Source: Eledone cirrhosa
Taxonomy: Eukaryota
DNA length: 64,000 nucleotides
Direction of reading: 5' to 3'
Assembly: GCA_964016885.1 (NCBI GenBank)
Contig: OZ024742.1
Span: forward strand, 194,060,001-194,124,000
The translations under genes and the position numbers were made by a program. Below the pieces are notes generated by a model. The model had not been told where the DNA came from and did no database searches. It worked only from the letters and a program-made list of their open reading frames with translations. This document shows positions 1,711 to 50,947 of this stretch, one piece after another (within the stretch, counting starts at the first letter, position 1; the number at the start of each line of letters is the position of its first letter).

Positions 1711-1761
1711 AGCTTCTAGAGGACTAGAACTGTTTCAATCGTGAGAAATCATCAGGAAGCT
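1711..1761 (-). ncRNA. Type I hammerhead ribozyme (left arm of head-to-head pair)
   Basis: Reverse strand: agcttc-CTGATGA-tttctcacgatt-GAAA-cag..ctc-TA-gaagct; same family as 45385-45429. Confidence 0.7.
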
Positions 1762-1805
1762 GAGGAATTCTCATGAATGAAACAGTTCTAGTCCTGTAGA
1801 AGCTC
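1760..1805 (+). ncRNA. Hammerhead ribozyme (right arm; 5' strand of helix I lost at the inversion junction)
   Basis: CTGAGGA-attc tcat gaat-GAAA-cag ttctagtc ctg-TA-gaagctc. Confidence 0.7.
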
Positions 1806-1932
1806 TTATATATATATATATATATATATATATAGTGGTAGAACACTGGAAGATAATATCCGTAGTGGTAGAGCACTCAGTCCATGGGACGAGTCAAGTA
1901 GAAGTGGTTACTCAACAGTTAGTTCACCATAC

Positions 1933-1970
1933 CGAGAACAATTGTTTCACCTTAGCGGATCCTCAGCTAC
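1933..1970 (-). ncRNA. Minimal hammerhead ribozyme, palindromic helix III
   Basis: Reverse strand: ag-CTGAGGA-tcc gctaa ggt-GAAA-CAATTG-TT-ct; helix I weak. Confidence 0.55.
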
Positions 1971-2067
1971 CTGCGGTAGGCCATCGAGCACTCGATGCTC
2001 TTACAGAGCAGAGTATAATATCACATAAGAAACGGAGAATCAGCGGTACGACGAATTAAAATTTATT

Positions 2068-2164
2068 AGACATATTACAATCGTTTCTCTGACGACCAGC
2101 TCGAGGTACTATAGATGCGATGATCGAACCTGACTCTCAAATCGCAAGATCCTCAGATACGTCT
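2068..2164 (-). ncRNA. Hammerhead ribozyme, left arm of inverted repeat 2018-2330
   Basis: Reverse strand: agacgtat-CTGAGGA-tct...aga-GAAA-CGATTG-TA-atatgtct (8-bp helix I). Confidence 0.75.
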
Positions 2165-2185
2165 GGAAACGGCTTCGAAAGATTG

Positions 2186-2282
2186 AGACGTATCTGAGGA
2201 TCTTGCGATTTCATTGTCAGGTTCGATCATCGCATCGATCTTGCCTCGAGCTGGTCGTCAGAGAAACGATTGTAATATGTCT
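2186..2282 (+). ncRNA. Hammerhead ribozyme, right arm of inverted repeat 2018-2330
   Basis: agacgtat-CTGAGGA-tct...aga-GAAA-CGATTG-TA-atatgtct. Confidence 0.75.
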
Positions 2283-2508
2283 AATACATTTGAATTCGTC
2301 GCACCGCTGATTCTCCGTTTCTTATGTCATATATATATATATATATATATATATATATATATATATATAGGTGTGTGTGTAGAAATAAACACAGTAAATT
2401 CCGTGTCTAAAATTATGAGGGTTGAGAATGCCACAAATGTTTTATATATTTAACCTGAAACATACAGTAGGATATAATTCTGTAAGCCATTTCATCAATA
2501 GCCATTTC

Positions 2509-2597
2509 ATCTCTCCGACAGATTAGAGATTTAACCTGTTTCGTCCTGAAAATTGTGTTTGTAACAGATAATCCGTAGGCTTTCCTCAGCTAGAGAT
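2509..2597 (-). ncRNA. Hammerhead ribozyme with 7-bp helix III (partly decayed)
   Basis: Reverse strand: atctctag-CTGAGGA...GAAA-caggtta aatctc taatctg-TC-ggagagat. Confidence 0.55.
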
Positions 2598-3461
2598 TAG
2601 ATCAAATGAAATAAAACACATCTAACAGCAACTCAAGGAGTAAATAATACACCTCGTGGGTTGCACGCTATACGTGTTATGAGTGGTTATGCTAGAAATA
2701 ATAGCCTTATTTCACTCAACTTATAACCTCACCTAGTTAGGGAGCCGAAATACAAATAAAACACAGAGTTATTAACTCATGTTAATTGCAGGGTATCAAT
2801 ATGAGTTAATAACTCTGTATTTTATTTGTATACACACACACACACACACACACACACACATATATATATATATATATATATATATATATATTAGAAAGAT
2901 CGAGTATCGAAAAATCGGCGCACGAGTTCACGATAAACAATATTCGAAATGAGCGGCAGAGGGCTTTATAATTCAGATGAATCAGAGCTATAACTATCGT
3001 TAAAATACCGTCACACATAGAACAAGTCTACAATCAACCATACGATAAAAAATCGATAATAGAAGATTCGGGACAAACAGATAAAAAATATCAATAAAAC
3101 AATACATCAATAATTTAAATGAATGTAAAATCATACCCGGACCCACTAAAAAGGTGTTAAATCTAGCTTCTTGGGTTTCTGTAAATCCTTAGACTGTACT
3201 CTATCAGCACACATATAAATATATAAGACTACTAGAGCAAGAGGAATGGAGTTTACTTCATCAACGAGCTTTTTCCTGGCGGATAAGGGGCTAACCACAA
3301 GCGAAATACGCACATGGCATTCGACAAGGGAGATAACCTCTACATCCGCGAAAACTATTCGAGGAAATGTGGAAATACACATATCGAATAAGAGTGCTCA
3401 ATAGACATGTTAAAATAAAACAAAAGCTATTCATCAATATATATATATTAATAGTAATAAT

Positions 3462-47679: not shown

Positions 47680-47724
47680 AGTCACTGAAGAGGTCACAGA
47701 GTGTGTGACCAAAGAACTATGACT
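47680..47724 (+). ncRNA. Minimal hammerhead in Neptune pLTR (G12 mutated)
   Basis: agtca-CTGAAGA-g-gtcaca..tgtgac-CAAA-gaac-TA-tgact. Confidence 0.7.
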
Positions 47725-48167
47725 ATATATAAACAACTATCTGGTTGTGGAACCAACCAACCAACCAGAAATTTATAAATTTATAAATTTATTATAAATT
47801 TATTATAATAAATTGAAGTGAAAGCAACTGGTGCGTGTGTTCCTTATTGGCAACATGACCCTCCCAAAGTATAACAATATATATATATGTATAAATTAGA
47901 ATTGGTGCTCTGAAATAGCGATATATATATGAATGTATATATACTGTATTTTGCAATACACCGTATCCTTAATTAAAAGCATTTCGAAGACCTTATGCTA
48001 TTGTTTTATAGTAGTGACAGTCTCACTTACTGTCACTACTCTAAAACAATAGCATAAGGTATTCGAAATGGTTTTAATTAAGCAACCAGTGTATTGCAAA
48101 ACATACTATATATATACATTCATATATATATATATATATATATATATATATATATATATATATATAT

Positions 48168-48331
48168 AACGGAGGAAATGTGGTAAGGAACCGGATGGAC
48201 CATAACGCACCAAAGTACTCAATACTTAGGGTAGTAGAGTGGGTAATAGGAACGAGTAGGACCCCGACGGCTGCGTCCAGAATTAGCCGTCAAAACGGCT
48301 TGAGCTCAGCCATCGGGGTCCTACTCGTTCC
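48168..48331 (-). mobile_element. Fold-back element with 3' half HHR (deleted copy)
   Basis: Same family as 58303-58500. Confidence 0.75.
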
Positions 48332-48680
48332 TATATATATATATATATATATATATATATATATATATATATATATATATATATATATATATATATACAT
48401 ATATATATATTTATATATATATATATATATATATATATATATATATATATATATATATATATATATATATATATATATATATATATATATATATATATAT
48501 ATATATCGTTATATGTGTGTGTGTGTATGTAAATATATTCGTCTACAAAATTCCATTCAAATGCCATTGATCCACTCGACAACTGAAACCAAAAACAAAT
48601 AGCTGCTATGCAATCTCCTCAAAAAAAAAAAATATATATATATATATATAAAAGAATAGAGGTGTAACACACAAGTTATT

Positions 48681-49783
48681 ATATATTGGTAAACGGAATA
48701 GAAAATGCTGACAAATTGTTCACAGTTGAAAAATGGTTTAATTAGGAATAAAAGAGTATTAGTGATTGTATGGGTTAGTATTCAGTTGTGGTTTTAAGTT
48801 TTTAAGTTTTTACCAGTTGCGCAATTCTAAATGCTTTTCAAAAATAATTTTGAGATAGAGTGTCCGTGCTGTTTGCTCTGATCTAATTAGTTTTTGGAAT
48901 TCTACCTGTTTTTATGTTAAAAAAGTGGCTCCAGCGTTATTTTTGTGTTGCAAAAATTCTTGTGGTCAAAACAATGTTGATTGGTCGGTAGAGGTCATGT
49001 GAATGTAAAAAGTTGATTTTGCGCCAAGACTGTTTTTATGTTAAAAAAGTGGCTCCAGCAAACACACACACACATACCCACTGCTACACACACACACACA
49101 CACACACACACACACACACACACACACACACACACACACACTTATCTTAATAGCCATTTGACACACATCGCTGCTGGCCATTGTCGCAGCATCGAACACC
49201 TTACTACTACTACTACACACACACACACACACACACACACACATATACACACACACACACACACACACACACACACACACACACACATACACACACACAC
49301 ACATATTTGTTGTGAAAGAGTCATTTCTCAATCTTGGCGCAAAACCAATGTTTTATCCACATGACCTCTACCGACCAATCAAAATTGTTTTGACCAAGAA
49401 TTTTTGCTGGAGCCACTTTTTTAACATAAAAACAGTCTTGGCGCAAAATCAACTTTTTACATTCACATGACCTCTACCGACCAATCAAAATTGTTTTGAC
49501 CACAAGCATTTTTGCAACACAAAAATAACGCTGGAGCCACTTTTTTAACATAAAAACAGGTAGAATTCCCAAAACTAATCAGATCAGAGCAAACAGCACG
49601 GACACTCTATCTCAAAATTATTTTTGAAAAGCATTTAGAAATGCGCAACCGGTAAAAACTTAAAAACTTAAAACCACAACTGAATACTAACCCATACAAT
49701 CACTAATACTCTTTTATTCCTAATTAAACCACTTTTCAACTGTGAACAATTTGTCAGCATTTTCTATTCCGTTTACCAATATA
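48681..49783. repeat. ~1.1-kb fold-back (arms ~380 bp) around a (CA)n-rich spacer
   Basis: 48681-49061 is reverse-complementary to 49401-49783; internal ~130-bp direct repeat. Confidence 0.85.
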
Positions 49784-50081
49784 TATATATATATATATAC
49801 AAAGACACACACACACACACACACACTCACACATATATATATATATATATATATATATATATAAAATAAACTAATATAAATGAGTCAAATATTTAAAATT
49901 TGGCTTCGTTTATTACTGCTATATATATTTCGGTGACAGCCATCTTTGGCTCTGACCTCTTCAAGCATGATTCCAGTTCCTCAGTGAAATAACAACCCAA
50001 CCAGGAACTGGGCATATCAGAGTATTTACAAAGTTAAACACCTCAACAACATCTTTACTCGTCTCTACCACACTAATTCTG

Positions 50082-50117
50082 ACTGCCTGAAGAGGTCACC
50101 GAAATATATATAGTAGT
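50082..50117 (+). ncRNA. Minimal hammerhead; partner on minus strand at 49915-49967
   Basis: actgc-CTGAAGA-ggtcacc-GAAA-TATATA-TA-gtagt; left arm has longer helix II and a C3 mutation. Confidence 0.7.
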
Positions 50118-50493
50118 AATAAAGAAAACAAACTTTTAATATTTGACTTATATATTTTTGTTTATTTTATATTACTCCGGAGTAACCAAACCAACCTGCG
50201 CACTTCGTCGAGTGCCCCAATCTGCATACGGAAGTGTTAGTATACAACCAACTTATACTTAATATATATATATATAAAGAGAGAAAGAGAGAGAGAGAGA
50301 GAGAGAGAGAGAGAGAGAGAGTGAGAGAGAGAGAGAGAGAGAGAGAGAGGAATACACAAAAAGTTATGTTTTCAACTATAGGGGATAGAATACCACCAGA
50401 GTCAAAAACATATTGTGTACGAAAGGAATGGAGAATACATATCAATTAAAAGAATAAATTAAAATATACAAACCATCCGATTATAACTATAAT

Positions 50494-50568
50494 ACCTGGA
50501 CAAGCTCGCCAGCATGTTTCGCCACAAGTAATGTGTAGATTCACACCGTGGAGCGCTTATCAACAGGT
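50494..50568 (-). ncRNA. Hammerhead ribozyme with U3-A8 core (left arm of inverted repeat 50380-51062)
   Basis: Reverse strand: acctg-TTGATAA-gc...gc-GAAA-catgct ggcg agcttg-TC-caggt. Confidence 0.75.
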
Positions 50569-50872
50569 GGTCAAAGAATATAATCCACACTTCTAAAAAT
50601 ATATCAGATAACTAGTATATACAGATGGTGGAAAGAGAAAACATGTGACCTATACAGTAAGTGTGAATGGACCAAAAGACCACTAAAATCAGCAGCTGAG
50701 AACCATTCAACTTACGAGGCTCTATTTACATATAGAAATTAATTAGCAGCAAAAATATAAATAAAACAAATGAGTTAAAGACTCACGTTAATCCCCTATA
50801 ATTTCGTGAGCTCAAGGAATCGTATATTAGTTATCTGATATCATTTTAGTAGTGTGATCGTATTTTTGGTCC

Positions 50873-50947
50873 ACCTGTTGATAAGCCGTCAACGGTATGA
50901 ATCTACCCTTTATTTGTGGCAAAACATGCTTTGCAGCATATACAGGT
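50873..50947 (+). ncRNA. Hammerhead ribozyme with U3-A8 core (right arm, G12 mutated)
   Basis: acctg-TTGATAA-gcc...ggc-AAAA-catgct ttgc agcata-TA-caggt. Confidence 0.65.

Follow-up and report, generated by a model that had tools for sequence, protein, structure and literature searches.

Inverted, one-tailed pairs of PLE copies in Eledone cirrhosa and a possible asymmetric double-ended priming reaction

The window analyzed here, a 64,000-nucleotide stretch of the Eledone cirrhosa genome, contains nine inverted repeats that an initial annotation had described as head-to-head hammerhead (HHR) pairs. Arm-versus-arm alignments (67 to 540 columns, ∼85 to 93% identity) and the HHR sense confirmed this polarity, with the left arm on the minus strand and the right arm on the plus strand at 9/9 listed loci. 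The HHR strand is also the element sense, as the HHR at 41845(+) lies downstream of a GIY-YIG reading frame on the plus strand. The nine pairs represent the 3′ ends of eight hammerhead-bearing PLE families (pairs 3 and 6 share family F4) and are pairs of 5′-truncated PLE copies lying head to head between microsatellites. The features are as follows (F, family; L, locus).

1628..1755, minus: pair 1 left arm, F2; HHR, short-end site and 61-nt tail (∼1628-1688), then (TA)n
1760..1808, plus: pair 1 right arm, F2; no tail, terminates in (TA)n
1972..2167, minus: pair 2 left arm, F8 (L117); tailed, the tail interrupted at ∼47 nt by a junction with another HHR-like element
2164..2330, plus: pair 2 right arm, F8; no tail, HHR stem II of 61 nt, 4-nt junction overlap
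23858..24521, minus: pair 3 left arm, F4; partial tandem, no tail
24522..25098, plus: pair 3 right arm, F4; 54-nt tail
39343..40249, minus: pair 4 left arm, F6; retrozyme-like unit of ∼340 bp, ∼2.7 tandem units, U3-A8 HHRs, 30-nt tail
40250..40602, plus: pair 4 right arm, F6; no tail
42166..42556, minus: pair 5 left arm, F22 (L087); 140-nt tail (∼42166-42304)
42566..42838, plus: pair 5 right arm, F22; no tail
43355..43834, minus: pair 6 left arm, F4; no tail
43840..44474, plus: pair 6 right arm, F4; partial tandem, tailed
44511..44999, minus: pair 7 left arm, F1b (L001); no tail, SINE-like repeat inside at 44531-44711
45000..45372, plus: pair 7 right arm, F1b; tailed
49863..49967, minus: pair 8 left arm; no tail, HHR degenerate and its stem II longer, position of the inner boundary uncertain
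50077..50262, plus: pair 8 right arm, F10; 90-nt tail
50280..50820, minus: pair 9 left arm, F9 (L147); U3-A8 HHR, no tail, starts within the tail of the tandem unit before it, position of the outer end approximate
50821..51462, plus: pair 9 right arm, F9; tailed, (GT)n and SINE-like repeat inside at 51063-51355
45555..45646, minus: short inverted tailed arm of the ORF-bearing element; ∼36 nt of 3′ end plus tail, absent from the initial annotation
45647..47880, plus: 5′-truncated PLE, F1a; RT motifs, CX4CX2C linker, C-terminal GIY-YIG and pLTR, no tail
40669..42016, plus: second truncated F1 copy; GIY-YIG end, HHR at 41845
47890..48131: additional head-to-head pair, F6; left arm tailed, right arm without tail
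48170..48331: additional head-to-head pair, F19; left arm mostly tail
10945-11168, 27279-27485 and 58282-58501: head-to-head pairs of the same type as the F19 pair
18197..18574: additional head-to-head pair, F3; left arm tailed
23012..23835: additional head-to-head pair, F5; partial tandem on the left
36809..37085: inverted pair with a one-sided extension; no HHR found, polarity suggested by the pattern only
48648..49789: young inverted pair, arms 98% identical, one-sided extension; no HHR found, polarity suggested by the pattern only

The truncated element at 45647 to 47880 has one in-frame stop (46532-46534). All nine pairs first listed are real, but the list was incomplete: a family scan of the window yielded 14 head-to-head pairs and 1 tail-to-tail pair, five further head-to-head-type insertions were found by eye, and the window holds about 10 head-to-head pairs beyond the nine. 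Both 3′ ends of each pair had been said to face the microsatellite. This is so in general, with microsatellite on both flanks of the pairs, where a target duplication cannot be read. However, a later insertion or another element parts three outer ends from it (pair 2 left, pair 7 left, and pair 9 right), and the outer ends are unequal, one arm stopping at a short end while the other continues through a 30- to 140-nt tail before the microsatellite.

Because Rfam at its gathering threshold found no hammerhead over the window and only one tRNA-like match, we used our own HHR descriptors. These gave 63 matches compared to 3 in a reversed-sequence control; ∼26 of the 63 came from two satellite loci, which were removed afterwards. 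Many of the 18 HHR motifs of the nine pairs are decayed, with 5 passing a stricter descriptor and 3 more a looser one, and in pair 3 GAAA is replaced by CAAA in both arms. Descriptor matches point to a minimal type I hammerhead, in sense orientation, in the pLTRs of all eight families. Such hammerheads have been described in pLTRs, together with a U3-A8 core variant, found here in pairs 4 and 9, and dual opposite-strand motifs 100 to 700 bp apart (PMC4209133). In the available text of that paper, the dual motifs are a side observation in Schistosoma, given without polarity counts or a mechanism. Hammerhead cleavage was rejected as the source of the arm 5′ ends, as 0/51 partner arms (four families) and 0/10 long-copy arms start exactly at the predicted site (F9 was not scored); the nearest starts were at −2, −6, +8, and −9, in F8.

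Family F1 (pair 7 and the copies at 40669-42016 and 45555-47880) encodes, in a single ORF, an RT and then a GIY-YIG endonuclease at the C terminus, the arrangement expected of EN+ PLEs. RT motifs and a YIGET motif are present; the RVT_1 (E=3.5e-4) and GIY-YIG (E=1.4e-3) matches of L322 are both below the Pfam cutoffs, and the intron endonuclease match is weak (E=0.035). The F1 pLTR is a partial tandem containing the ORF start (partial tandems in L291, L295, and L322), its short end falls just past codon 8, and its tail corresponds to ORF codons 9 to ∼27. A C-X4-C-X2-C motif upstream of the GIY-YIG motif matches the CX2-5CxxC linker that defines the Neptune or Nematis clade (PMC8557442), and F1 is a candidate member of either. 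Upstream sequence was traced for F22 (∼1 kb), F8, and F9. All eight families show an inverted 5′-truncated copy at the 5′ end with an optional one-sided tail, and F2, F4, F6, F8, F9, F10, and F22 are putative EN+ PLEs by their HHR, tail, and architecture. The short tandem HHR units of F4, F6, and F9 resemble animal non-LTR retrozymes, proposed to be nonautonomous PLE derivatives (bioRxiv 10.64898/2026.07.22.740005). Unlike in the available account of retrozymes, F6 has the head-to-head, one-tail footprint of the coding family (15/16 pairs). The accessible portions of PMC13282606 mention neither hammerheads nor palindromes.

The polarity extends beyond the listed loci. Opposite-strand neighbors were head to head in 14/15 cases in the window (P = 0.001) and in 27/34 cases in 59 sampled 10-kb stretches, 590 kb of genome in all (P = 0.0008). 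The 7 tail-to-tail cases in the sample are not comparable in number; the junctions inspected contain (TA)n or unrelated DNA, and these cases are separate insertions. The sampled density of head-to-head pairs is ∼46 per Mb, and scaling from 27 per 590 kb gives a rough genome estimate of 1.4e5 palindromes. Many PLE copies have no inverted partner at all. The polarity flagged at the outset is not new: earlier publications report head-to-head polarity, opposed hammerheads, and a tail on one side, and EN+ PLEs are described with an inverted 5′-truncated pLTR copy, head to head, and a tail at one end (PMC3846280, PMC8557442). The octopus pairs have the same layout.

In every family tested, copies end 3′ at either of two fixed positions, a short end or a long end comprising the short end plus a tail of 30 to 140 nt. 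Overall, tails here measure 27 to 140 nt, compared to 30 to 40 nt in the PLEs of PMC3846280 and PMC8557442, as far as their available text goes. A GAGTRC hairpin occurs in tails and may set a start site. Exactly one arm was tailed in 120/125 scorable pairs (P ∼ 1e-29 against 50%), namely, 26/26 sampled, 14/14 window, and 80/85 targeted pairs. The five exceptions were two pairs without a tail on both arms, two tailed on both, and one ambiguous pair that was counted against the rule. Pairs with a 3′-truncated, internally primed, or unresolved partner were dropped before the count (e.g., L004, L020, L104, L142, L265, L269, L288, L292, L297, L303, L310, L311, L319, and L323), as were one sampled pair truncated at the boundary of its stretch, loci present twice, and three targeted loci identical to window pairs. 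Independent tail choice would give one tail in at most half of the pairs; since exactly one arm is tailed in almost all of them, the two primings are not independent. That the tail is often at one end was known; counted here, the pairing is near-strict (96%). We rejected a model in which the 5′ and 3′ pLTRs are the two sources, because tail status showed no association with any site in five families (smallest P = 0.10).

Exceeding the 50% ceiling by this much, the rule makes it very unlikely that the pairs are independent insertions in one microsatellite hot spot, or independent primings on unrelated templates, later homogenized by gene conversion. Microsatellites here do gather many separate insertions, and L097 and L098 mix shared private variants with discordant haplotypes, both in keeping with that explanation. 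The head-to-head junctions, however, lack (TA)n and instead show overlap or short filler, and the variants of old pairs are mostly unshared. Center-biased conversion was rejected in particular, as arm mismatch is not lower near the center (4.0%, 4.0%, 3.1%, and 3.0% from the inner to the outer quarter).

The 5′ ends of the two arms are independent. Neither arm contains the other in 27/51 one-tail pairs, among them pairs with tail-only arms and one in which a tailed arm of 94 nt faces a 2.2-kb tail-less arm; 21 pairs are nested and 3 start at equal positions. The joins often show 2- to 6-nt overlap or short filler, and overlap was at least 2 nt in 36/52 gap-free junctions, compared to 34% in simulated blunt joins (P = 2e-7). 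This microhomology, for which the initial annotation had proposed inspecting the junctions, supports its suggestion of priming from both target ends and central joining, as do the independent 5′ ends and the non-nested pairs.

The available literature instead proposes antisense-RNA self-priming (PMC3846280) and ascribes the tail to endonuclease resolution (PMC8557442): an antisense RNA or nascent cDNA would fold and copy itself, and the endonuclease would resolve the hairpin at two sites. Such a route yields head-to-head polarity and related arms, and it suits the same-base starts within a palindrome in L182, L288, and L312. Small fold-back pieces occur at some junctions (L294, L325, and L297), and these, like the nested and equal-start pairs, would also fit fold-back. 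Yet in the 27 non-nested pairs the tail-less arm extends further 5′ while the other has the tail; each arm has sequence that the other lacks, and therefore neither templated the other, contrary to the self-priming of PMC3846280. Tail-only arms do not overlap with their partners, and L315 has a same-base start with differing haplotypes. Simple fold-back or self-priming is thus excluded as the sole route, and we regard it as improbable as the general one.

Two templates, or a tandem or circular one, had been proposed for the arms, but the arm differences do not mostly reflect different templates. The arms share 86 nonconsensus variants, compared to 15.9 expected, and discordant diagnostic cells numbered 23/141 and 15/140, versus 54.4 and 53.5, respectively, for random partners. 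As arms are nearer to each other than to random copies, their 6 to 14% differences are mostly later decay. Arms of different haplotypes occur in a minority of pairs (L315, L204, L098, L088, L091, and L097) and not in most. A few sites, at which the query-selected arm has the query's allele, account for many of the discordant cells, and hypermutation and selection therefore make the discordance look larger than it is. L182 seemed discordant (91% versus 99%) and was set aside, the difference being mainly indels.

In L1 twin priming, both target strands prime, the inversion is head to head, and the center shows microhomology. L292, L310, and L319 resemble it, but the L1-type layout of adjacent, largely nonoverlapping parts is found only in a minority (such as tail-only arms, L292, and L319). 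The initial contrast with L1 holds for the nine pairs, whose arms overlap by 67 to 540 nt, and not for tail-only arms and internally primed inversions. Compared to L1, the second primer here is normally at a fixed site 30 to 140 nt from the first, and therefore the arms usually repeat the same sequence. A strict form of twin priming would place two RTs on one RNA molecule, where a start site cannot be shared; PLE RTs are not known to have RNase H, the trailing RT would displace the first cDNA, and template switching would account for discordant pairs. Strict twin priming is a special case of the explanation that we favor below, weighed separately. It accounts directly for the one-tail rule, tail-only arms, and near-identical arms such as those of L324 (28/31 variants shared over 1.8 kb; 20/20 diagnostic sites). 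Against it, L315, L204, L098, and three F22 pairs in which discordant sites are linked obey the rule despite different haplotypes, and therefore a single template is not required; L315 has one tail and a join within a TATA palindrome, with haplotypes differing at 6/7 sites. We consider the strict form rather unlikely.

An assembly or library fold-back artifact is scarcely credible. No read or contig among the records listed spans the window's own junctions, pair 5 included, as an artifact would predict, but the arms are up to 14% different, have different biological ends, and carry separate later insertions. Moreover, opposite-strand joints near the arm 5′ end of F2 recur in three raw-read runs. 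They are head to head, because the shorter side at joint 3052/3052 has 36 to 39 letters and only 12 letters lie to the left.

The explanation that we find most probable is that the two ends of a single break prime reverse transcription in a coordinated manner, each at a different start site and usually from one source. The GIY-YIG endonuclease would cut both strands within (TA)n, and each 3′ end would pair with a short ATAT-like site on the element RNA. An asymmetric, probably dimeric, RT complex would use the distal site for one cDNA and the proximal site for the second. Synthesis of both would end prematurely, and the 3′ ends of the two cDNAs would be joined by microhomology or a self-complementary motif, followed by fill-in. 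In most cases one RNA, or RNAs of one source locus, would serve as template, and sometimes two different copies or tandem units, with later mutation producing most arm differences. We infer a single event from the tail pairing, as an empty site or target duplication is illegible in (TA)n. The self-complementarity of (TA)n, invoked initially, is not needed for the polarity, as rotifer PLEs are head to head with ordinary 8- to 10-bp target duplications (PMC3846280); with TA symmetry, though, both ends could pair with ATAT-like start sites.

The anole PAc (Poseidon) PLE protein cuts and extends both strands in vitro and is predicted to dimerize; two internal start sites bound the tail, targets are AT rich, and HHR cleavage is not needed (PMC11167929). 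Its start sites did not differ between the strands, which speaks against the model. If formed as proposed above, the octopus pairs would likewise have two start sites bounding the tail and extension of both strands, at AT-rich targets. Poseidon lacks the CX2-5CxxC linker, which is present in the ORF-bearing family of the octopus. The accessible text of PMC11167929 reports neither start-site pairing within one target nor a link to inverted pairs, and our literature search found no paper counting tail pairing or proposing double-ended priming for PLE inversions. The origin of tandem and inverted PLE structures is named an open task in PMC8557442. The architecture is known, and our numbers sharpen this mechanistic question: they turn a qualitative remark on the tail into a near-strict rule and rule out fold-back in roughly half of the pairs. 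The rule survives differing templates, which yields a clear-cut prediction for the in vitro system already available. In genome annotation, the estimated palindromes could be misfiled as MITEs or TIR elements.

On a broader reading we are evenly divided: PLE integration may be an obligatorily asymmetric double-ended reaction, in which one RT complex allots the two break ends to two RNA start sites, even with two template RNAs. If so, a single mechanism, taking the place of second-strand synthesis, would have left both the inverted pLTR and the one-sided tail, contradicting the published self-priming and endonuclease-resolution proposals. It would be common to coding elements and retrozymes and would have left on the order of 100,000 palindromes in this genome.

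Self-comparison of the window and arm alignments confirmed all nine inverted pairs of Penelope-like element (PLE) copies described in the initial annotation, and all nine are head-to-head, as first noted. Polarity is fixed by F1, the ORF-bearing family, in which a reading frame for RT and GIY-YIG precedes the hammerhead (HHR) and shares its strand. The pairs are spread over eight families in this 3.0-Gb animal genome, and roughly ten further such insertions lie within the window. As an Rfam search of the window left the minimal hammerheads of these pairs undetected, we used custom descriptors, which gave 3 matches in reversed sequence versus 63 in the real sequence (two satellite loci, later dropped, account for ∼26 of the latter). 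They accept 8 of 18 named HHR motifs, the other ten being decayed family members or weak-stem variants. Several high-copy families carry a U3-A8 variant of the hammerhead core (window 39838-40461 and 50494-50950; scored genomic loci L078:929-1039 and L084:1284-1367). The window also holds SINE-like repeats, which we take to resemble octopus SINEs, and the following features, the three coding labels being assigned from characteristic motifs:

12375-14707, minus: decayed coding retroelement fragment, possible second PLE-like frame (three fragments without a Pfam match)
19045-22349, plus: decayed coding retroelement fragment, RTE-like LINE
28659-29422, plus: decayed coding retroelement fragment, another LINE
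38644-38715, minus: tRNA-like match (Rfam, 53.7 bits), possibly a SINE head or pseudogene

Elsewhere, a long low-complexity array (L287:1786-4552) is similar to the AAC-rich insert of the F1 ORF and recalls the N-rich inserts of PMC3846280.

To assess polarity in the genome, we sampled 17 large contigs in 59 stretches of 10 kb each, placed at round coordinates, a choice that is not strictly random. HHR matches served as seeds for 22 families, and same-family neighbors at ≤1.5 kb were scored. The excess of head-to-head pairs held: 27 were head-to-head, 7 tail-to-tail, and 8 tandem, and the window gave 14, 1, and 7, respectively. Of the tail-to-tail junctions, the one in the window and five of the sampled set were inspected completely or nearly so, another was inspected partly, and one was omitted. 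Those inspected in full hold (TA)n, unrelated DNA, or other elements, the pattern that separate insertions would predict. The targeted loci described below included two close tail-to-tail cases (L006 and L281). Among the records listed, no read or contig crossed pair 5; in three raw-read runs, opposite-strand joints close to the arm 5′ end recur for family F2, and joints 3052/3052 and 3052/3069 have head-to-head geometry. This evidence applies to the family rather than to the nine loci. Reads at L079:3040-3178 have joints stepping back 73 to 78 nt, which suggests very short tandem units of F2. Head-to-head polarity is real, yet already in the literature: it is described as the commonest arrangement, with self-priming on an antisense template proposed (PMC3846280); an adjoining inverted copy is described, with the tail often at one end only (PMC8557442); and dual HHRs on opposite strands are mentioned (PMC4209133).

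In targeted searches, we used six probes and took wider stretches around the matches. Each family has two fixed 3′ end sites in these loci, and each copy stops at one of them; most sites bear an ATAT-like motif continuing into the target repeat. In F1, the extra piece of the long end (the tail) is the start of the ORF. Tail state was scored by eye at both outer ends, and the probes were blind to it because their sequence ended at or before the short end. Exactly one tail was present in all 26 scorable pairs of the sample, which held 27 in total (the least certain call being L057), in 14 of 14 window pairs, all nine included, and in 80 of 85 scorable targeted pairs, from 227 locus rows.

Targeted pairs with exactly one tail, by family
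F1a: 9/9
F1b: 7/8
Long F1 copies: 16/16
F6: 15/16
F8: 14/16
F9: 6/6
F22: 13/14

Overall, 120 of 125 pairs have one tail, against a ceiling of 50% under independent priming (P ≈ 10−29). The tails of the otherwise unrelated families F2, F3, F8, F10, F17, F19, and F22 have in common a GAGTRC motif predicted to sit mostly in a small hairpin. It occurs in 7 of 18 tail stretches (0.37 expected), five times within a predicted stem, one of the 18 stretches having been mis-cut; it was not found in F1 tails. Examples of tails from these families in the window are as follows:

1628-1688: GAGTRC-family tail
50172-50262: GAGTRC-family tail
58303-58381: GAGTRC-family tail

Fold-back, with one arm serving as template for the other, requires the tail-less arm to lie within the tailed one. 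Among 51 one-tail pairs from five families, the arm reaching further 5′ is the tailed one in 21 and the tail-less one in 27, with equal starts in the remaining 3; partner arms consisting of the tail only also exist (L207, L120, L017, L203, and L293). We therefore reject fold-back as the general route. Fold-back or a template jump at the end of synthesis can happen, as small fold-back pieces at some junctions indicate. Three loci (L292, L310, and L319) are internally primed, L1-type inversions. With L297 and L288, they make five long copies whose inverted partner is truncated or starts internally, and the direct arm is tail-less in every one; in L297 and L292, the start lies at an ATAT-like site beside (TA)n.

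Across 51 pairs, the arms have 86 nonconsensus variants in common (15.9 expected from other loci; totals per side, 210 and 270), 76 outside CpG and 27 pair-private, with 14 coming from one divergent pair (L004). The 19 younger long pairs have 73 in common, and the closest arm, alone or tied, is the partner in 7 of the 19. Diagnostic sites were discordant at 23 of 141 in one comparison, for which random partners would give 54.4 and identical templates about 4 (too low a value if some sites are hypermutable), and at 15 of 140 in younger long pairs (53.5 for random partners). Single-site discordance is weak evidence because such sites are possible and the query-selected arm often has the query allele. 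Multi-site discordance was found at six of seven sites in L315, at three or more linked sites in L204 and L098, and at two in L088, L091, and L097; all six pairs retain one tail. Variant sharing and multi-site discordance together indicate that the templates usually have the same source and sometimes different ones. Arm differences in the window's pairs are mostly unshared decay (pair 7 has 13 and 10 variants per arm, 2 in common). Arm mismatch is no lower toward the center, which disfavors strong gene conversion between arms.

Among 81 central junctions, 36 overlap by ≥2 nt, 16 by 0 to 1 nt, 24 have filler of 1 to 30 nt, and the gaps in the other 5 are longer and in some cases consist of unaligned element sequence. 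Microhomology was enriched: 69% of filler-free junctions (n = 52) overlap by ≥2 nt versus 34% of 720 simulated blunt joins (P = 2 × 10−7). Where both arms of a pair start at the same base, that base lies in a self-complementary motif (HHR stem II for L182; also L312, L294, and L315), and no coincidence was found between partner-arm starts and the predicted HHR cleavage site. In F8 (L117-L146 and L217-L226), the 5′ ends of 26 of the 39 probe-selected arms fall inside a 25-nt stretch ∼30 nt upstream of the HHR, possibly an RNA 5′ end or an RT stop. The unlinked F22 pairs L098 and L111 have identical junction positions, which may reflect a recurrent join or remobilization of the whole palindrome. 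At window 1835-1972 (minus), the left-arm tail of pair 2 is fused, without change of orientation, to a hammerhead-like motif of another family, possibly through an interfamily template jump or a deletion between neighbors.

The data demonstrate the architecture, the two ends, the tail pairing, the non-nesting, the microhomology, and the related templates. Behind them, we infer a double-strand cut in (TA)n, after which an asymmetric complex would prime twice, in a coordinated manner and at different sites; both syntheses would stop early, and an end-joining step would follow. In the accessible portion of PMC11167929, both strands are cut and extended, two start sites bound the tail, and a dimer is predicted; these results back the component steps, and no test of start-site pairing is described there. 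The pairs are real and frequent in this genome, and their layout is one known for PLEs, now seen in new families. Three properties were not found in the searchable literature, namely the near-strict one-tail rule, the non-nested arms, and the mixed-template pairs, and with them the question of PLE integration becomes testable.
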